From contig CAVPIW010000010.1 of the NCBI GenBank assembly GCA_963705105.1, positions 32,001 to 96,000 of the forward strand: 64,000 nt of DNA. Direction: 5' to 3'. The notes beneath the pieces were generated by a model, which was not told where the DNA came from, did not search any database, and saw nothing but the letters and a program-made list of their open reading frames with translations. The position numbers and the translations under genes are program-made. Shown here one piece after another: positions 6,335 through 64,000 of the stretch. Origin of the DNA: an uncultured Nitrospiraceae bacterium. Its GTDB lineage: Bacteria > Nitrospirota > Thermodesulfovibrionia > Thermodesulfovibrionales > Dissulfurispiraceae. Numbering within the stretch: position 1 is the stretch's first letter; every line of letters starts with the position of its first letter.

Positions 6335-6530
6335 ATCGTTGGAGTAGGACCTCCGGAAAGGCGGGGCAAAGATGCCGAAAAGCCTTGGTGCTGCGAAACC
6401 TTTGCCTTCCCATGAGGATCATTTCAGGCCCACGGTTTATGACACAAAGGATGGAATCCTGAATATCCAATTTCAAATGATTATCCTCGCTATCAGCAAG
6501 GCATTGAGGCATTTTGTCCCGCCTTTTCAT
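6335..6530. repeat. Family A palindromic element
   Basis: Ends GGAAAGGCGGGG and CCCGCCTTTTCAT; internal GCCGAAAAGCCTTGGTGCTGCGAAACC shared with other copies. Confidence 0.92.
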
Positions 6531-53945: not shown

Positions 53946-54434
53946 TTACTCGGACGATACGGAGATTTTCTTTGTCTCCGCCACTTCCTTTTCCGTCTTG
54001 GGAAGAACGATCATCAGGACACCTTTTTTGAAGGTCGCATCGATCTTGTCGCTGTCGATCTCACGGGGCAGGGGTATGGTCCTGGTGAAGGACCCGTAGG
54101 ATCTCTCCATCCTGTAATAATCCTTCCCCTTGTCCTCTTTTTCCTCTTTCTTTTCTCCCCTGATCGTCAGGGCATCCTTGCTCATGGACACATCGATGTC
54201 CTTCTCGTCCATTCCCGGAAGCTCCGCCGATATCTTGATTTCCTTGTCCGTCTCCATCACGTCGATGCGGGGGCTGAAAGTGCCGAGGCGACTTCCAAAG
54301 GGTTCGACATCGACTCCACGGAAGAAATTCTCGAAGAGTTCATTCATCTCCCGCTGCAGCAGGGCAAAGGGGTCATCCTCGCGCCGCACCTGCAGTCCTC
54401 TCTTGCCGAATGGCATCAAATCCCTGATTGACAT
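53946..54434 (-). CDS. Hsp20 small heat-shock protein
   Basis: AELPG, ERSYGSFTR, GVL. Confidence 0.93.
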   Translation of the reverse strand: MSIRDLMPFGKRGLQVRREDDPFALLQREMNELFENFFRGVDVEPFGSRLGTFSPRIDVMETDKEIKISAELPGMDEKDIDVSMSKDALTIRGEKKEEKEDKGKDYYRMERSYGSFTRTIPLPREIDSDKIDATFKKGVLMIVLPKTEKEVAETKKISVSSE

Positions 54435-54455
54435 GACTGCAACACCTCCTTTTCG

Positions 54456-54860
54456 TCACTTTCCTGCCGCAACGGGGATCTTCCGCGTTTTGGCGATTTC
54501 CGCCTTCGGCAGGATCAGGGTTAATACGCCGTTTTTCAGTGATGCCTGTATCTTTTCCTTGTCAACTTCGTCGGAAAGGGTGAAAGACCGCTGATAATCA
54601 CCGATGCCGTACTCCGATGCGACGAGACGGTGCTTCTCCGGTATTTCCGCCTCGACCTTGCCGTAGATCGTCAGGACGTTCTTTTCGAGGGTGATGTCGA
54701 CGGTCTGCTCATCCACGCCCGGCATGTCGGCGATGACGACGATGTCATCCTTGCGCTCCATGATGTCGACGAGGGGAGAATAGAGTCTCCTCGCCCTTGT
54801 GCGCTCGCTTCCTTCAGCGGCCGGCGCCTCCTTTTTCAGAATATCTCTTGCGTCCGCCAT
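54456..54860 (-). CDS. Hsp20 small heat-shock protein
   Basis: ADMPGV, YQRSFTL, NGVLTL. Confidence 0.92.
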   Translation of the reverse strand: MADARDILKKEAPAAEGSERTRARRLYSPLVDIMERKDDIVVIADMPGVDEQTVDITLEKNVLTIYGKVEAEIPEKHRLVASEYGIGDYQRSFTLSDEVDKEKIQASLKNGVLTLILPKAEIAKTRKIPVAAGK

Positions 54861-54878
54861 GAGAACACCTCCTCAGTT

Positions 54879-55307
54879 TTATTGAGCCTTGACGCTGATC
54901 TTTCGGGGTTTTTCCGCTTCCGCCCTGGGCAGTGAGATCGTCAGGATGCCTTTGACATACCGTGCGTCGACCTTTGCCGATTCCACGTCGAAGGGGAGTT
55001 CCAGGGTCCTTGTGAATTGTCCGCCCCACCGCTCTCTCCGGTGATATGACTCACCTTCCTTGACGCCATCAGGCTGACGGGACCCCTTCAGGGTGAGGTT
55101 CGAGCCGACAACGGATATGTCTATCGAAGCCGGGTCGACACCGGCTATCTCTGTCGTGACGATCACGTCATCCTCAGACATCCACATATTGGCTGCAGGG
55201 AACTCGTAGGCCACGGGCGACACTCGTGCGGCCGCCCTGTTCATCCGTTCGAACTCCCTCCAGGGATCAAAGAATCTGCCGAGTCTTTCGAGTTCTGACC
55301 ATAGCAT
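54879..55307 (-). CDS. Hsp20 small heat-shock protein
   Basis: RRERWGGQFTR, GILTISLP; ATG 55307 after GGAGG. Confidence 0.92.
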   Translation of the reverse strand: MLWSELERLGRFFDPWREFERMNRAAARVSPVAYEFPAANMWMSEDDVIVTTEIAGVDPASIDISVVGSNLTLKGSRQPDGVKEGESYHRRERWGGQFTRTLELPFDVESAKVDARYVKGILTISLPRAEAEKPRKISVKAQ

Positions 55308-55353
55308 TGTGCAAGACCTCCTTCCGGGTGGGCCGATGGCCCCAACCGAATAA

Positions 55354-55380
55354 TTAGCACTCTCATTCATCGAGTGCTAA
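55354..55380. promoter_or_regulatory. CIRCE element (HrcA operator)
   Basis: Perfect TTAGCACTC-N9-GAGTGCTAA. Confidence 0.97.
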
Positions 55381-56187: not shown

Positions 56188-57583
56188 TATGATAACGTTC
56201 AGGACATCGTTAACTGTTTTTACGTTCAAGACATCGTTTACTCTCGTTCTTTGACATTGAAATAGCCACAGCCAGGTATATCATGAACACCCAATTCTTT
56301 TGCGGAGGTGTTCATGAAGAAGAATATCCTGCAGCAGAGAGTATTAGCAGTACGACGATACATAGAGGGCGAAAGTCCGCGAGACATCTGCTCTTCATTG
56401 GGAAAGACGAAGCCGTGGTTGTACAAATGGGTTGCACGGTACATTCCGGATGATCCGACATGGTTTGAAGATTGGTCCCGGCGACCTTTTACCAGCCCCA
56501 CACATACTCCTGAGGAGATCGAAAAGATCGCAGAGATGGTTCGGTTGAGCCTGTACAATAAAGGCGTCTTTTGCGGTAATCAGGCCATCCAGTGGGAGAT
56601 GATCGACATGGAGATCCAACCGCTCCCTTCCCTGAGCACCATCGGTCGTATCTTGCGCCGACTCGAATTGACTCATCGACGGACCGGGAGATATGAGCCC
56701 AAGGGGAAGAAGTATCCCGAACTTCCGGCGCTTTTGCCCAATCAAACGCACCAAGTTGATCTGGTTGGTCCCTGTTACCTTACCGGCCCAATCAAGTTCT
56801 GCAGCCTACATGCCGTTGATGCCGCAATCAACCGGTGTGGGATCGAGCCGATACCTTCACGCGCGGCGCAAAGCGTTGTGGATGCTGTTTACGCAATTTG
56901 GCTGCGGATGGGAATCCCGGAGAATCTTCAAGTGGACAACGAATGGGCCTTCTTTGGAAGTCCGGCGCACCCGCGAGGCATGGGTGCGCTTATTCGCCTT
57001 TGCCTGCGCTACGGCGTTCACCTCTGGTTCATTCCACCTTCGGAGCCATGGAGGAACGGGGTCGTCGAGAAATTCAATGATCATTATGAGCAGAAGTTTC
57101 TCGCCAAGGTCATGATGACCTCTAGGGAACAGCTTGACCAGGAATCGCTTGCGTTCGAGTATATGCACAACAGCACCTATCGCTATAGCAAGATCAAGGG
57201 AAAAACTCCTCTCAAAGCATTGGCTGACACAGAAAGGAAATTAATCTTCCCGAGCAAGAGTGATACCCCAAGAAATCCCTTGGATAAGCCGGAAGAGGGT
57301 TACTACCACTTCGTGCGATTCATTCGAAGCGATTGCCGGCTAAACATCTTCGGCGAAATGTTTCCTATTCCCCCGGAGACCCAGTACGAATACGACGTGG
57401 CTACTGTCGATGTCAAAGATCAAAAGCTGAAGCTCTTCCTGGACAGGCCCCAGGTCGAAGAATACAAATAGCAACTGCTGACTCATGATAAAGGTCACGG
57501 GCATCGTGAAATGCATCGCCCCAACGAGAGTAAACGATGTCCTGACCATTTCTTAAGCAAACGATGTCCTGAACGTTGTCACA
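56188..57583 (+). mobile_element. IS481-like insertion sequence
   Basis: Left end TATGATAACGTTCAGGACATCGTT vs right end (reverse complement) TGTGACAACGTTCAGGACATCGTT; second internal copy of the motif at each end. Confidence 0.85.
56308..57471 (+). CDS. DDE (rve integrase-core) transposase
   Basis: N-terminal HTH (WLYKWVARY), HQVD, QVDN, NGVVEKFN. Confidence 0.9.
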   Translation: MFMKKNILQQRVLAVRRYIEGESPRDICSSLGKTKPWLYKWVARYIPDDPTWFEDWSRRPFTSPTHTPEEIEKIAEMVRLSLYNKGVFCGNQAIQWEMIDMEIQPLPSLSTIGRILRRLELTHRRTGRYEPKGKKYPELPALLPNQTHQVDLVGPCYLTGPIKFCSLHAVDAAINRCGIEPIPSRAAQSVVDAVYAIWLRMGIPENLQVDNEWAFFGSPAHPRGMGALIRLCLRYGVHLWFIPPSEPWRNGVVEKFNDHYEQKFLAKVMMTSREQLDQESLAFEYMHNSTYRYSKIKGKTPLKALADTERKLIFPSKSDTPRNPLDKPEEGYYHFVRFIRSDCRLNIFGEMFPIPPETQYEYDVATVDVKDQKLKLFLDRPQVEEYK

Positions 57584-58733
57584 TATAAGCTTCGCCAGTC
57601 AGCAATAGTGAGGCTATCTCGGGTTTAGAACTGCGCAAATCATTGAGCGAAGTAATGTAGCGTTTTGGCTCTGCCTGTGGAATTGCGATCCCATAATTGT
57701 TTTCAGACGTGGGAGGTCTCACCTCAAAACAAGCCAAACCAACCCCTAACGTTATTAGTTTACTGCCCAGAGGGGTTACTACAAGTCGACACCCACCAAG
57801 CATGTTTAAGCTATCGCGGTAGCGACACATCGCCGAATACATCTGACGATAAGCCTCAAAGGGATTGTTTTCATGAGCATAGAGAATGTTAGTTGTCGGC
57901 ACCTTTCTCACCCCAAACAAAGGACGCATGTATTCCACCAGCAGTTTATCGCCTCTTCTCAGGTCATTGGAAGGATGCGGAACTACCGGGCATATTTCAG
58001 CAGTGTCAGGGATTACTGATACCATCACCTTTTCGAACTGACCCATACGATTTTCACCAAGAATGGGAAACCAAACAAGAGGCCAGTCTTGCATGCTCTC
58101 CGAATACAGAGCACTTGAATATCCAGGGATGAGCACCAGATCGTTGCTGGGATCGTCAGATTGTATACGCCCATCGAGCGAAGCATCTTGTCCAACAAGT
58201 ACTTGAAAGTTAATCCCCTTGGCCCCTAAGGCATCCGGAGTCTTAATAGGCATAACTTTGTGAAGAATGGCGGTCAAAAGAGTTAGATAAACGGTTCGTG
58301 GCAGAGAACTGACATCTAAGATAATGTCAGTCTGATCACCAACGTGCGACAACACTTTCATCATTCCAATCGAAAGTATGTTACTTGCACTAAGATCAGT
58401 TTCCTCGACCAGGGATGAGTCAAAACTGATTTCATGCACTGAGCCGATTTCCCGGAAAAGCTGTTGAATTTCTCGAGCGTTCTGCTCGGTCTGCTCAATG
58501 AGGGCATCGTCGAGTTCGTATCCTGTGAGGCCGACCAACAACAATCGAGCCTCCTCAACCTTGTGGCCGTTTGAGCGCATGTTTTGTAAAAACTCAGATA
58601 GCACTTTCTGAGCCCTCACGTCGAATCCTCGTCCACAGATGTACAACAAGCGAATAACACGATCTCTGAACAGGTCGTCCCACAGATCGTGTACGCTGTC
58701 ACCCATCCTAAAGACGTAATTCTTCCAGAGCAT
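57579..58733 (-). CDS. Hypothetical protein, possibly tandem Rossmann/CARF-like
   Basis: Long ORF coupled to the upstream gene; IILDVSSLPR and VTPLGSKL segments; fold call is inference. Confidence 0.7.
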   Translation of the reverse strand: MLWKNYVFRMGDSVHDLWDDLFRDRVIRLLYICGRGFDVRAQKVLSEFLQNMRSNGHKVEEARLLLVGLTGYELDDALIEQTEQNAREIQQLFREIGSVHEISFDSSLVEETDLSASNILSIGMMKVLSHVGDQTDIILDVSSLPRTVYLTLLTAILHKVMPIKTPDALGAKGINFQVLVGQDASLDGRIQSDDPSNDLVLIPGYSSALYSESMQDWPLVWFPILGENRMGQFEKVMVSVIPDTAEICPVVPHPSNDLRRGDKLLVEYMRPLFGVRKVPTTNILYAHENNPFEAYRQMYSAMCRYRDSLNMLGGCRLVVTPLGSKLITLGVGLACFEVRPPTSENNYGIAIPQAEPKRYITSLNDLRSSKPEIASLLLTGEAYM

Positions 58734-58735
58734 TC

Positions 58736-60661
58736 TTACTTCGCCTCCATTGTTTTGAAGCGAGGTGGCGCCTGCCGACCCTGTCGCATCCACTCAACTA
58801 TGTCTTCATTTCTCACATCCTGCCATCCTCCCATCTGCAACGGTAGCCCATAGTAGCTGCACAAAGTCCGATTCAGATAGAAAACAACTCCGCTCTCGCG
58901 GGAGGCCGACGCCGCGCTGTCGCGTTGAACCAGTAGATTCTCCGCAATGCATTCAGACAGCACATTTAAGAGGAGCTGATATTGTTCTGCCATCGGTCCA
59001 TTGGAAGAGCGCAATTCCTCAATCTTGCCATGAGATAGTCTTATGCCAGTGATTCCAGGAGCGTAAGGAGCATTCGGCAAAAACGTCCTTTCACGGCAGA
59101 ACATCCCAATACCGTCCAGAAGTCGTTGAGCTCTTGTCCCTTGTGTATGTGACCTGGGAATATAATCCCTCTTTCGCTTTGCCGCATCTTTCAGAAGTTT
59201 CTCTTGCTCATAAGTTGACAGTACAAGTTCCGAACGCCTTAGCAACTGCTTTGCCTGCAACCCTTCGTATAGGGCCGCTGCAAGTCCAAGCAATTCTTCG
59301 ACGTTGTTAGTCGCCATCATACATAACCTCTCGATACCAAAATAGTAAGGAATTTTGAGGTCGTCATTCATGAAGATTTCTGCCGCGCCTTGCACTTGGG
59401 AACTGTCGCGCTCTTCGAGCTCTTCAGATGAAAGGGGAACTAAGGACAACTGCCGTTTCGCCTCATTACGAGCGATAAGGATTCGCGTCGTATAAAGCTC
59501 CACCAATGCATCGAGGTCACTCTTAGCTGCGTAGCTATCTGCCTTGTTAAACCATTCTACATACTGCGTATCGGACCGATAGCGTTCTGTGATCTCATAA
59601 AACTATGCTATGCCTTGCTGGATCTCTCGACGAATCTCGTCATGCTGCAATTGCGAACGGAGGTATTGCGAAAAATTGCCCGAGGGAATCACATCTTGCG
59701 CAGCCAACCGCCTATCGAGGATATTCTGTGCGAAGGAGGCAAACTGATGCAGCCCTCGCATCGAGGTCCATAATTCCTCCAGATCGATCTCATTGGAGTC
59801 ACGACCATCTCGAGTGCCCTGCGACAACAATTCGATGCCCAGTGCGTTTCTTCGCTCAGCGATCCACACCGGAATACTTGGTCTTGATTCGATCAATTCT
59901 TGAATCAATAATGCCCTTTGGTTCCGGCGCAGTTTGTGTAAATCGTCTATCATGAGCAGTCTCTGAGGAGCTAGCATTTTCCCATCTCTAATAAATCTAA
60001 CTCCCTGGAGCCATAACAAGCTCTCAAATCGCACATGGGCTGGCATTTCACGCGATGTCGGTCCAGGAATTGCATCCAAATGGGCGTATACTTCTCGCTC
60101 ATATTGCTCAGCCCAAAGAGCGAGTTCACTTGCGGTATCTACTAACGGAATGGATTTAATGTCAATAGCCGCTCCGTCGTACTCAAGTTGGATGCCGTCG
60201 AGTTGGTCTACAGAAGAAAAGCCAACAAACAAAGATAAAGACCTTAAGGTGCGAAGCACAACCCGACAATCAAGCAATGCCCGAAAAAGCCCAGCTTGAG
60301 AAAAAGCTGCTCCAGGTGGCAAATCAGCGTATCCAGAGGCACAGGATAGAAGCACTCCCAATAGCTGCGGTCCTTCACCTTCACTTAACACACCTCGAGC
60401 AACGAGGCGTTGATACGATTCGTTCATTTCTGAGGATTTGCGCGCGTTCCAGAAAGCGCGCAGAGCCATAGGGGTGAAAGCGCGCAACAGGGTCGTCTTG
60501 CCAGCGACCGGGGAACTCCTGAAGATGTGAACGGCACCTTTGAATACTTCTTCGGGTAGTTTTTCAAGGATCTTCGGAGAAAAGAGACGTACAAATTCTT
60601 GATAGGAAGTGGTACGTTCGGACATACGATCTAAAAAGGGATTCGCCTGATACCTCATCAA
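58736..60661 (-). pseudogene. P-loop ATPase (ORC/Cdc6- or STAND-like) with one in-frame TAG at 59603-59605
   Basis: RSSPVAGKTT (degenerate Walker A), LLMIDD (Walker B); the frame stays open across the TAG into ORF 58736-59506. Confidence 0.75.
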
Positions 60662-61764
60662 AACTCCCTGTGTCGACTCACTCTGGGGAATAGGCCATGG
60701 AAGCGAAGAAACTCAGGCCCCCACAAAAGGTAAACCGAATTATTAGGAGTGTTGTGAGAAAGGACTAACGGAAGAGAGCATTTCGCAAATCCCCAGCGGG
60801 CATCAGTAGTTCCTCCAACGAGAATGTGTTTGTCAGAAGCTTTGTCATCGTAATAATTCGGATGAAGAATAATCTCTTCTAACTGGGGGACTGTTTCTCC
60901 TGTAAGGGCAGTTTCGGGTTCAATCGGACATAGCACCCTAAGCTGAAGAGGCTTGTAACCGTTCGGAGAAGTGAATTGCTCAGCCCAATACTCGATATGG
61001 TCCACCGCCTGACGCGTTGCAACATACAAAAGGAGAAATACCTCATAATGCGACGTATCGATCAAATCCCCACGATGCAATCTCTCATATATTTTCTTGA
61101 TATTGCCTTTGAATTTCTTCTCAGCGCTGTCAAAACGAATATACGTATAACCACTGCCGGAGAAATCATCAAGCAGCCAAATCATGTTGAAGCGTGGTTT
61201 GTTCGTTGAAAACCCAGCCTTTCCCAGAGTTTCCCCTAACTCTCGGGTCATGTCGCTCGCCTTTTCCTCGCCCAGTTCGTATGCTTGCCAGATCTGCTCA
61301 TTGCCGATGTCTCCTTCACTGGCACGACGGAGCTCATTTGTTCTCGCGCCATCACTAAGCCCCAGATATAGAGATTTTATGCTCAGTTCCGCGAACCGCC
61401 GCCCATGAACGATCGTTCCGATGCGATGGGGTGGTATATACATCTCCTCCGCGACGAGACGTATACGCTCCTGAAGAATCCAGTCTGGATATGCAGTCTG
61501 TACAAGGTGTGATAATTCCGCTGCGGAGATATAAATCAACCGATCCGTTACAAGATGCAGAGCTGTGGAGCGGTGCACACGGTCAAACTGATTGATCCAA
61601 TGCGACAGGCTTTCAATGAATCTTTTCACTGGGGCAAATTGCTCGTAATGGTCGTATTTGTAATCAGCCAACAACTGCAATTGAGGGATGTGCTCACTGA
61701 CGATCTCGGGATCATCACAGCTCATAACTTTAGCCAGCAGCGCTTGAGCATTTTGATCTTTCAT
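60658..61764 (-). CDS. Phosphoribosyltransferase-like protein
   Basis: WLLDDFSGSGYT PRPP-binding-like loop; HNTPNNS; ATGA overlaps on both sides. Confidence 0.75.
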   Translation of the reverse strand: MKDQNAQALLAKVMSCDDPEIVSEHIPQLQLLADYKYDHYEQFAPVKRFIESLSHWINQFDRVHRSTALHLVTDRLIYISAAELSHLVQTAYPDWILQERIRLVAEEMYIPPHRIGTIVHGRRFAELSIKSLYLGLSDGARTNELRRASEGDIGNEQIWQAYELGEEKASDMTRELGETLGKAGFSTNKPRFNMIWLLDDFSGSGYTYIRFDSAEKKFKGNIKKIYERLHRGDLIDTSHYEVFLLLYVATRQAVDHIEYWAEQFTSPNGYKPLQLRVLCPIEPETALTGETVPQLEEIILHPNYYDDKASDKHILVGGTTDARWGFAKCSLPLVLSHNTPNNSVYLLWGPEFLRFHGLFPRVSRHREF

Positions 61765-63733
61765 AGTGGAGTACCGACTTCTTCTCTCTTATAGTCTGTC
61801 AGACGGAGATAAAAAGAATTTTTATCTGTTGTAAATAAGCGTGTCAAATACCATAGAGTCGCGTCTACGTCTCGTTTATGAGGCGGGGCGAGCTTCCACT
61901 CACGGTCGATACTTAGAGATGGCACATCGACGCTCAAGGAGTACCGGTGCTCAAGCAGCGTTGAATCGTTTCCGGGCCAGGCACCCTGATCACCCATAGT
62001 CAAAATTTGATCCGGTTTAACTCTGAATTATTGAATGATTACCGTTATCAAGCGAGATTTGCTGATGTCTCTGGCTAATATGTCAATTGAATGCTTACTA
62101 AGCACCATCCTCGAAAAATCCAAACCCGCCTTGCGAAGTGCATCAGCTAACACAAACCACATGCTTTCGGTATTAATTCCTTCTTGAAACCGTATACTGA
62201 CTTGATAAGGTTGAGTCGGCTTGATTGTATCGATCGGGACCCCGAATGCTTGGAGCCCCCCCACGATTCGCACAGCATGGCTAAGGAATTCGCTTGTTTC
62301 TGTTCCTTCCGGCTGAGGCCTGCCAATATCCGATATCAGACCACAGCTATAAAGTCCCAGCCTAAATCTACTCCACAACGTCTGCGGCAGGAGTCTTGAC
62401 AGATGTTCCCGGATTGACCTTCCTCTGCCTGACGCTATGCTGATAATAATTCCTGCTTCGGCGAGCCGAATAAGTTGTTTAAGAACTGCGTCGGTCGGTG
62501 AAACATCCTTTCGCTGAGAACTGCATAGCGTCCCATCATAGTCAAATACGATAGCTTTGAACTCCTGTCGCTCAAGTGCTATTTTGTAAGCGTCGAGTTT
62601 ACGCTTCATGAAACCTTGTCGAAGAGTGGAAGGCCATCGTGCACCGAGAACCGCGTACTTCAAGTATTCGCGCTGGTCCAAAGTAACGGCACCGACACTA
62701 GTTTCTGAAGATCGGCATAATATAGATCCCTCCCAAATTGAGGGACGACTGGGTTCCCCGGGTCAACGTTCAGTTCTTTAGCTATATTCGCAACAAGGTG
62801 CATCTGTGCTACCAACCCCGCGATCAAATCCCACGGAGCGCTGCCTCCCGTATGCATGGTAAAGGTTGGCACTTCCGATGGCAGAATACGTTGCATATGT
62901 GACCACAGATCAGCCATAGATGGGTCAGTGAGAGCCAGGATAGCACAATCTGCAGGCCGAGTTGCTAACCAAAGATGGCGGCCGTGGGCAAATGAGCGAA
63001 TATCGGCTACTTGACAGTGCAGAAGCGCCGACTCAGCAAGCTTCGACTCAAGGTCTGCCGCGATTGCCCTCATAAAAGGTGAATAGATAATAATGATGTT
63101 CTCTCTTTTTGCGACTTCTTTGACAAACTCGTCAGCATGTTTGAGCCATTCAGTAATTTGTAACCCCGAGAGGGTGACTTGATTCAAATTATCAGGAAAT
63201 TGCTTCTTCTTCTGATCCAGTTCTCCATAGGCCCGGGCGACTACCACAGCATTCAACAATAGGCTGTTAGTTGCCAGATAACCATCTTTCTGAGCGAGCT
63301 TGAAATAATGAGTAGTGACATCGGTGAGGCTTTCAATACTTGCGACTAATGGGCTATTTTCTTGGTTTGTTATAACATGAATGCTGCGTGCACTGTGTCG
63401 TCTGGCTCTAAGCAACGCCTCTATGATGTCAGGGTTTTTCTCTTCGGCGGAGACCAAAAATACAGGGCTTGTTGCCGCCAGCGTGGGATTGCATATGATC
63501 TCAAGCGGCGTTGATGGTCTTGAAACCCTACCTGTATACGATTCGTGGAGATTACAAAGCAGCGATGCGATCGTGAAGGAACCGCCTGATCCCACGCCAA
63601 TAACGCTCAGGCCGCTCGCTCCGGCAATCGCTTTCTTGAGCAAGCTAACATCTGCCTCAAGCGCTGCGGAGTATGTTTCTCCTATCACCTCAAGTTCATT
63701 CTCATAGTGGTTTCTCGATCTTGGCAGCTGCAT
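61761..63733 (-). pseudogene. SIS (sugar isomerase)-HAD phosphatase fusion, frameshift near 62690 and in-frame TAA at 62028-62030
   Basis: GVGSGGS and FAHGRH (SIS); FDYDGTL, ASGRG, SK and MGDQG...GND (HAD motifs I-IV) spread over three ORFs. Confidence 0.75.
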
Positions 63734-63746
63734 AAGTCCCGTGTCG

Positions 63747-64000
63747 CTACCTATTGGCGCTAACGGCCTCTTGTGATATCATTTTTCTACAATTATTAAT
63801 TGTACGCTGTATGGGCCTGTTTTTAGAAGGGGTTCCTTTCCGCAACTCCGCTCGCAATTCCATCAGTAGAATGCCCAACATGTTCTGGCCCTTTCCGTTC
63901 ACCTCACCCCATATCCGGTTAATGGAATTGTCCACCGTGCCAGCCTCGACGAGCCGTGCATCTCGAGTTGAAAGTAGCAATTCGCATAGGTCGTCGTGTT
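63747..64000 (-). CDS. NADAR (YbiA-like) family protein, 5' end outside the window
   Basis: HDDLCELLLST...LVE...IWG...GQNMLGILLMELR. Confidence 0.8.
   Translation of the reverse strand, partial: HDDLCELLLSTRDARLVEAGTVDNSINRIWGEVNGKGQNMLGILLMELRAELRKGTPSKNRPIQRTINNCRKMISQEAVSANR

Follow-up and report, generated by a model that had tools for sequence, protein, structure and literature searches.

A decayed copy of a mobile CARF-ATPase-phosphoribosyltransferase cassette in a Nitrospiraceae genome, with a possible role in anti-phage defence

What kind of system brings together, in one compact operon, a NADAR N-glycosidase, a SIS-HAD fusion, a phosphoribosyltransferase (PRTase), and a P-loop ATPase? 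This question is raised by one end of the window analysed here, a stretch of 64,000 nucleotides from an uncultured Nitrospiraceae bacterium (assembly GCA_963705105.1, contig CAVPIW010000010.1, positions 32,001 to 96,000), where a preliminary description had proposed a conflict system built around ribosylated nucleotides. Our results revealed a mobile six-gene cassette whose copy in the window is broken, whereas dozens of unrelated bacteria keep it intact with its gene order unchanged. The conserved order, the mobile context, and a conflict-type role involving ribosylated nucleotides are all supported. For its function we tentatively favour, at somewhat less than an even chance, abortive anti-phage defence, in which a CARF protein and its ATPase would sense a ligand and release a PRTase that drains phosphoribosyl pyrophosphate (PRPP), with the NADAR and SIS-HAD enzymes holding that ligand down.

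A conserved, mobile cassette and its broken copy in the window

The operon had been described as five tightly packed, co-directional genes, and these indeed occupy the minus strand from 57579 to 64000. Following the same contig past the window edge, in coordinates that we call window-equivalent, uncovered the remainder of the NADAR gene, a sixth gene encoding a ribbon-helix-helix (RHH)-like protein, and operator-like motifs. Transcription runs in the order RHH-like, NADAR, SIS-SIS-HAD, PRTase-CE, ORC/CDC6-like ATPase, and tandem CARF, as follows from the last gene to the first, with the adjoining insertion sequence (IS) added.

57579..58733, minus strand: tandem CARF protein (CARF6 family), 384 aa, without an effector domain; predicted ATPase binder
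58736..60658, minus strand: ORC/CDC6-like STAND ATPase, about 640 aa; Walker A Gly52 replaced by Val, frame interrupted by TAG at 59603-59605
60658..61764, minus strand: PRTase-CE, predicted effector, 368 aa; open frame, six changes at near-invariant sites
61761..63733, minus strand: SIS-SIS-HAD fusion, about 650 aa; double SIS of GlmS/NagB-II/FrlB type plus HAD IIB phosphatase
63747..64358 (window part to 64000), minus strand: YbiA-family NADAR N-glycosidase; broken by TGA at 64053-64055
Window-equivalent 64355-64552, outside the window, minus strand: RHH repressor-like gene; weak Pfam match (HicB/TacA1-like), below cut-off
Window-equivalent 64572-64578, with an imperfect copy at 64616-64622: GCAGTAC-type operator-like motifs upstream of the RHH gene
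56190..57581, plus strand: IS481-like insertion sequence, not part of the system; NF033577 match at E 2.1e-32, below its cut-off

The RHH gene overlaps the NADAR start by ATGA, as do the SIS-HAD and PRTase genes at 61761-61764; a further ATGA, previously placed at 60658-60661, proved instead to be a TGATG overlap at 60656-60660. The original NADAR, SIS, HAD, PRTase, and ATPase assignments hold (Pfam PF24390, PF24389, and others, with SIS below cut-off). Likewise, the operon lies in AT-richer DNA (GC 0.479 versus 0.571 for the genome) and is free of the host's approximately 200-bp repeat, none of whose 576 blastn segments genome-wide (80-98% identity) falls inside it. No second match to the operon was found elsewhere in the genome.

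The neighbourhood-conservation check that had been recommended revealed the cassette to be widespread. A search of GTDB genomes with the window PRTase recovered 63 loci, 56-80% identical, which by record title represent at least seven phyla (Pseudomonadota, Acidobacteriota, Nitrospirota, Thermodesulfobacteriota, Chlorobiota, Verrucomicrobiota, and Planctomycetota). The order RHH-NADAR-SIS/HAD-PRTase-ATPase-CARF is kept, with the PRTase in 63 loci, SIS-HAD and the ATPase in 61 each, NADAR in 59, CARF in 57, and RHH in 41; the four core genes are all present in 55 of the 63, the remainder being mostly cut by contig ends. A PfkB kinase is absent from all 63 close loci and had no match in the window's own genome, and every close locus with full flanks (48/48) has NADAR and lacks PfkB. 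The cassette is mobile and patchy in distribution. Its flanks do not recur (448 open reading frames (ORFs) in 423 clusters), and complete Escherichia coli genomes gave no blastn match with one Enterobacteriaceae copy. No DNA methylase occurs among the conserved genes of the close loci, and no reverse transcriptase was found among those genes or in the 272 of 394 filtered flank ORFs that the flank scan covered.

The window copy itself, whose decay the preliminary description did not mention in the text of the finding, is likely dead. Besides the TGA and TAG listed above, a TAA at 62028-62030 interrupts the HAD part, and a 1-nt deletion near 62688 lies between SIS and HAD, giving three in-frame stops and one frameshift in genes that relatives almost always carry whole, as a single ORF (NADAR 58/59, SIS-HAD 58/61, ATPase 57/58). 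It departs from near-invariant columns at 22 sites, one of them a stop and another the Walker A substitution, which is the second-highest count observed and compares with a median of 3-4 among 50 relatives. Further, the IS, rightly recognized earlier but taken as an outer boundary, lies within the final codons of the CARF gene, whose stop it provides; the end repeats of the IS and a 6-bp target duplication, CATATA, can be read from the sequence, and three other copies resemble it at 82-87%.

Two artefactual or benign explanations for the stops were rejected. First, assembly error is contradicted by 126 host orthologues (46,929 aa), which lack comparable stops: the five stops flagged are all alignment overhangs at gene ends, one possible frameshift was also flagged, and four lesions in approximately 2,250 aa would have P ~2e-4 even if all six host flags were counted. 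Second, stop-codon recoding was ruled out, because the three stops differ (TGA, TAA, and TAG). Of the four lesions, only the frameshift could reflect an error or a polymorphism: one low-depth contig of run X1 has the base missing at the SIS/HAD junction, an observation that covers the frameshift site and does not bear on the stops. Elsewhere on the contig, at approximately 105,080-105,130 (window-equivalent 73077-73128), a KdtA/WaaA-like gene is apparently split by a frameshift, hinting at occasional indel errors in the assembly. Four other cassette copies (L022, L056, L058, and L065) are likewise broken by frameshifts, deletion, or IS insertions.

Sensor, switch, and candidate effector

The last ORF had been called Rossmann-like and a sensor or effector; our results narrow the fold to a tandem CARF protein and make the sensor role the likely one, given that it has no effector domain. 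It matches the PADLOC family CARF6 (PDLC01910, E 6.5e-109) over positions 1-347 of 348. A model of the intact Trichlorobacter homologue (predicted local distance difference test, pLDDT, 86.9) contains two CARF domains, and its best fold match in VIA-align is Can1 (6sce; Z 14.9, root-mean-square deviation (rmsd) 3.3, 232 aligned residues), followed by other CARF and SAVED domains. The top Foldseek ranks, which were transporter C-terminal domains and universal stress proteins, had an rmsd near 19 Å and were set aside. The residues R146 and K326 are the conserved basic positions of both D/T-x-S-x-x-x-R/K loops, a CARF motif that may contribute to the binding of a cyclic oligonucleotide.

The neighbouring ATPase matches PF24389 on its two halves at 44.1 and 28.8 bits, and in an intact relative at 77 bits (cut-off 27), and its relatives conserve Walker A (SxPGxGKT) and Walker B (LMxDD). 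When the intact Trichlorobacter ATPase (1-618) and CARF protein (2-382) were modelled together, using custom-built alignments, the complex scored 0.61, while the best of three controls scored 0.00; the mark for this score is reached by 116 of 157 solved pairs and by 2 of 215 mismatched pairs. At least 83% of the contacts were common to the runs, with a partner pLDDT of at least 80, and the modelled interface involves invariant or near-invariant residues of both proteins (R132, E187, and D195 in the ATPase; G205 and E213 in CARF). The model supports binding of the tandem CARF to the ATPase, and the earlier suggestion of the ATPase as a switch is a likely one.

The PRTase matches PF24390 at 49.5 bits (cut-off 27) and the retron III-A PRTase of PADLOC (PDLC02935, E 4.5e-16), and its relatives conserve the PRPP loop LDDFSGSG and an HNTPNN motif; searches of PDB sequences with the PRTase alignments returned nothing meaningful. 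Precedents for a PRTase effector exist in Retron-Eco11, where, according to the available text of PMC12746101, a related PRTase effector lowers PRPP by about half once activated, and in ShosT, whose toxicity is attributed to its PRTase in the portion of PMC11961720 that we draw on.

How these three genes relate to one another is clarified by sister systems in the host phylum, where PF24389 matched 19 of 401 genomes. Of the 17 loci beyond those described above, 16 were examined, with 38 selected ORFs among their 97 neighbours compared with Pfam and 30 with PADLOC. CARF6 directly follows the ATPase in 12 of the 16, an adjacent DNA methylase is likewise present in 12 of the 16, and the gene before the ATPase encodes PRTase-CE (two loci), HD-CE (two), or a calcineurin-like phosphoesterase (one); most of the remaining loci have longer ATPase genes. 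Because these three families alternate before the ATPase, the PRTase sits in a swappable effector slot, and because CARF6 so regularly follows the ATPase, the two are the constant unit. SIS-HAD and NADAR stand where the sister systems have the methylase. In two loci (L201 and L202), the ORC-CDC6-like ATPase is fused to a ParA-like domain and the ORFs scanned gave no CARF6 match; these represent a different system.

Sugar-phosphate enzymes, NADAR, and what the cassette may do

The SIS part has fold matches in 2aml (Z 29.2), the glucosamine-6-phosphate deaminase 1j5x (28.7), GlmS (27.7), and FrlB (22.6), and conserves the motifs GSGG, ESKxxE, and FAHG. The HAD part, matched by Pfam, belongs to class IIB (TIGR01484, 48.4 versus a cut-off of 41.8) and retains all four HAD motifs (DYDGT, GRG, K, and GDxGxxxGND). 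NADAR is matched by PF08719 at 102 bits in an intact relative and by TIGR02464 at 93.3 (cut-off 73.7), aligns with E. coli YbiA at E 6e-32, and has an invariant Glu in its last strand, which makes it YbiA type and not BC4488 type, the latter having Asp there (as defined in the accessible part of PMC11125620). Upstream of the RHH gene, a GCAGTAC motif, often as an inverted pair, was found in 31 of 35 loci, after seven loci whose start could not be placed had been dropped. CAGTAC/GTACTG occurs 50 times versus 2.4 in base shuffles, and the motif is upstream of none of 45 PfkB-type loci. The RHH protein likely represses the operon at these repeats; a promoter scan upstream of the operon found no consensus site.

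Beyond the close relatives, a CARF profile recovered 605 clusters at 50% identity and matched 4 of 401 genomes of the host phylum. Among the best 80 of 486 distant metagenome loci, many of them on short contigs, the ATPase is present in 77, a zinc-ribbon PfkB kinase in 74, the PRTase in 53, SIS-HAD in 50, and NADAR in two. The order PRTase-ATPase-CARF is fixed, while SIS-HAD, PfkB, and NADAR change place. At least one of NADAR and PfkB is present in each of the 79 loci whose flanks are complete. Clades whose PRTases are 31-40% identical are joined by one NADAR subfamily (68-73% identity), which in the host phylum occurs only in two genomes, adjoining the system in both. Further, 20 plasmid records carry the system PRTase, and in 9/9 plasmid records with the NADAR subfamily (E 1e-40), NADAR lies within approximately 7 kb of that PRTase; annotation was examined for five of the nine, four of which hold both NADAR and PfkB. 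On one Sinorhizobium plasmid (L197; NZ_CP088118.1, 8,000-20,000), two PRTase-ATPase-like sets surround a single HTH-NADAR-PfkB-HAD block (HTH, helix-turn-helix). One clade of the PfkB form (L126, L131, L144, L145, L151, L152, and L157, that is, 7 of the best 80 of 486) carries a dCTP deaminase/dUTPase-like gene with a C-terminal hydrophobic segment, inserted before the PRTase.

Of 10 close matches to this NADAR on viral contigs, two belong to the operon, two are truncated by the end of their contig, and the other six occur without the operon, surrounded by phage genes. On one Mu-like phage contig (L179, 7873-8528), NADAR is accompanied by a short upstream RHH-like remnant and no other operon gene, which would fit its capture from a cassette. 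Another viral contig, with a solo NADAR, PNKP, and RNA ligase (L180, 9104-9574), also has a dihydrofolate reductase (Pfam DHFR), presumably resembling the trimethoprim-resistance type.

These results suggest a mechanism in which we infer the ligand, the direction of control, the effector activity, and the role in defence. A nucleotide ligand of the ribosyl type is likely detected by the tandem CARF, which is predicted to be bound to the ORC/CDC6-like ATPase; in response, the ATPase would activate the PRTase, which, by analogy with Retron-Eco11 and ShosT, would drain PRPP and nucleotides. The ligand would be a ribosyl N-glycoside. Cleavage of its N-glycosidic bond by NADAR, followed by isomerisation and dephosphorylation of the released sugar phosphate by SIS-HAD, would prevent activation as long as the cell is uninfected. 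In the relatives that carry a methylase, the ligand could plausibly be a methylated nucleotide, in parallel with PUA-Cal-HAD, whose trigger is of this kind according to the available portion of 10.64898/2026.01.15.699771. The solo phage NADARs favour a negative role for NADAR and would fit an off-switch that phages borrow, as with AdfN (PMC11825919). Because the cassette is only approximately 7 kb long, exists in intact form in cultured environmental strains, and offers clear catalytic residues for mutation, one could directly test what the ligand and the PRTase product are and what part the orphan NADAR subfamily plays in phages.

A more far-reaching version of this mechanism, which we regard as somewhat unlikely, would define a new branch of immunity: an effector-less tandem CARF would act in trans on a STAND ATPase and read a non-cyclic ribosyl- or sugar-modified nucleotide, the level of which would be controlled by sugar-phosphate enzymes in place of a methylase or cyclase, and the dedicated YbiA-type NADAR would be an off-switch captured by phages for anti-defence. 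Known CARF domains mostly read cyclic oligonucleotides and are fused to an effector of their own. A CARF protein controlling a separate ATPase, with no cyclase nearby, would, if true, point to a new class of immune ligand.

Several observations weigh against the abortive-defence reading. The CARF-ATPase score is that of a model and no measurement, the SIS fold singles out no substrate, and none of the conserved operon genes encodes a ligand-making cyclase. A clear mobile-element or defence neighbour (McrBC, Mrr, type I restriction-modification, AbiE, RES-Xre, integrases, conjugation genes, or prophage genes) was seen in 28 of 58 loci scanned and speaks for the defence reading, but this hand tally has no background control, and a recognized restriction, toxin-antitoxin, or abortive-infection gene lies nearby in only approximately 9-11 of the 58; about half of the loci sit among housekeeping genes. 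The NADAR-without-PfkB loci form one clade (SH-aLRT 100, in a quick PRTase tree of 75 rows), so that the replacement of PfkB by NADAR is a single event, and as a general rule it was rejected, since L072, L137, L160, L183, and four plasmids have both genes. Finally, RNA-repair genes (Rnl1/PNKP and RtcB) are also found close to solo phage NADARs, which may act in RNA repair (PMC9503650) or against DarT, and cultured phages gave no NADAR match at E 1e-25.

The housekeeping contexts raise the question of whether the cassette is an immune system at all. It could be a mobile metabolite-repair or stress module, regulated by CARF-ATPase, that clears glycated or ribosylated metabolites; SIS, HAD, and PfkB are ordinary sugar-phosphate enzymes, and YbiA-family NADARs (TIGR02464) hydrolyse riboflavin-pathway intermediates, as stated in the part of PMC9503650 available to us. 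We consider this improbable, in that the CARF6, PRTase-CE, and ORC-CDC6-like families stem from defence libraries and pair with methylases, and the distribution is patchy, mobile, and often decayed. In a single case (L194, 1287-1886), a GTP cyclohydrolase II gene lies approximately 3.4 kb from a cassette, across an IS66 element; we take its product to be a known YbiA substrate.

The companion sugar enzymes also admit a writer and eraser arrangement, in which the PRTase phosphoribosylates an amine in the cell, be it of a base, DNA, or protein, and NADAR and SIS-HAD, with PfkB elsewhere, remove the toxic adduct and its Amadori product, combining an N-glycosidase with FrlB/FrlD-like deglycation; CARF-ATPase would gate the PRTase, and its ligand would be unrelated to the sugar enzymes. 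In keeping with an antidote of this kind, full-flank loci always have NADAR, PfkB, or both, and NADAR, with an HTH gene of its own, is often encoded on the opposite strand; a PRTase and a NADAR alone also constitute DS-32, and PfkB plus a double SIS recalls the FrlD/FrlB pairing of E. coli. Profile scores among four E. coli references agree with that pairing (FrlB 7.6 bits above GlmS -2.7; FrlD 16.7 above RbsK 6.7), and the best PDB matches of PfkB are fructokinases and ketohexokinases. However, such four-sequence scores are weak, FrlB ranks in fold below the deaminases and GlmS (Z 22.6 versus 27-29), and sister systems with PRTase-CE in the effector slot have a methylase and no such adjoining sugar enzymes (L198), which implies that an antidote is not always needed. 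We judge this arrangement unlikely.

Less likely still is that the enzymes make the signal, with SIS-HAD (PfkB or NADAR supplying the sugar phosphate) and the PRTase building an unusual nucleotide as the CARF ligand, and the ATPase or HAD acting as the effector. In its favour, the operon couples an enzyme that makes nucleotides with a nucleotide-binding CARF and has no cyclase; the reading is also in keeping both with the sugar enzymes in the methylase's place, given the PUA-Cal-HAD trigger, and with the dCTP deaminase/dUTPase-like insertion. Nevertheless, a slot also filled by HD-CE and calcineurin-like hydrolases suits an effector better than a synthase, and NADAR alone in phages fits a negative role better.

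Relation to known systems and neighbouring features

The preliminary description could match the operon to no named system. This stands for the whole operon, for which we found no named, tested system in PADLOC, NCBIfam, or the searchable literature, although supplements of family surveys may list the neighbourhood; it does not stand for the PRTase, ATPase, and last ORF, which appear in catalogued models. PADLOC offered no named system for SIS-HAD, the ATPase, PfkB, or RHH, and NADAR weakly matched PDC-M42C. The operon is not described in the available portions of PMC13712802, PMC4012209, and PMC12839542, nor in the supplement rows of PMC13092281 that were accessible. The cassette is a variant of a catalogued, so far computational kind of system, which combines a CE effector, an ORC/CDC6 ATPase, and CARF6, usually with a DNA methylase. 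Specifically, PF24390 scores above cut-off, PF24389 comes directly after the effector, and CARF6 directly after the ATPase, an order shared with those systems along with the swappable slot; the cassette has SIS-SIS-HAD, a dedicated NADAR, and an RHH repressor in place of a methylase, whose absence, against 12 of 16 phylum loci, marks a variant and not an exclusion. The PF24390, PF24391, PF24389, and CARF6 families are reportedly due to Nicastro et al. 2023 and Makarova et al. 2020. New here are the CARF-ATPase complex model, the conserved operator-like motif, the system-tied NADAR subfamily, and the solo NADARs on phage contigs.

Within its own family, the cassette shares four core genes, with identities of 21-40% between the compared clades, with the five-gene SIS-HAD/PRTase/ATPase/CARF6/PfkB form, whereas the close clade instead has a co-operonic RHH-NADAR pair and the GCAGTAC motif. 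Retrons of type III-A (Retron-Eco11) have the same PRTase family, PRPP loop, and a PNNxP-like motif, whereas the cassette has no reverse transcriptase and control apparently comes from CARF-ATPase. DS-32, a two-gene PRTase and NADAR system that, according to the part of 10.1101/2025.01.08.631726 consulted, protects E. coli, likewise pairs the two enzymes; yet the cassette has six genes, its NADAR scores 72.2 bits against the DS32_2 cut-off of 240, and its PRTase has no NCBIfam match. In ShosTA, ShosT shares the logic of a PRTase working with a pyrophosphatase-type hydrolase domain (PMC11961720, same portion), whereas the HAD of the cassette is a separate IIB-type domain fused to SIS-SIS, and no DprA-like antitoxin is found among the conserved genes. 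DarTG1 (DarT1-NADAR) differs in that the conserved genes of the cassette include no ADP-ribosyltransferase and its NADAR is not of BC4488 type. Type III CRISPR Can1 and the SAVED sensors of CBASS also place two CARF folds in one chain, but the cassette CARF has no fused nuclease, would act through a separate ATPase, as modelled, and stands in an operon with no Cas10 or CD-NTase. Finally, resemblance to the FrlB/FrlD pair is divided, the profile favouring FrlB over GlmS and the fold ranking it lower, with the PfkB-family partner missing in close loci and present in most of the distant ones.

The surroundings of the operon hold further features of their own. Directly upstream, a NupC-like nucleoside transporter gene (named from its translation) is split across frames and partly duplicated, with copies at contig positions of approximately 96,740-98,000 and 103,350-103,780 (window-equivalent 64740-66001 and 71347-71775) and a transposase-like ORF between them. 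On the other side of the island, window positions 53946-55370 hold three tandem Hsp20-like genes on the minus strand. The dispersed host repeat of approximately 200 bp, which resembles a miniature inverted-repeat transposable element or a repetitive extragenic palindromic element, occurs in the window at 6530, 8568, 10000, 11380, 15925, 23270, 27791, 41308, 43503, 48926, and 52031.

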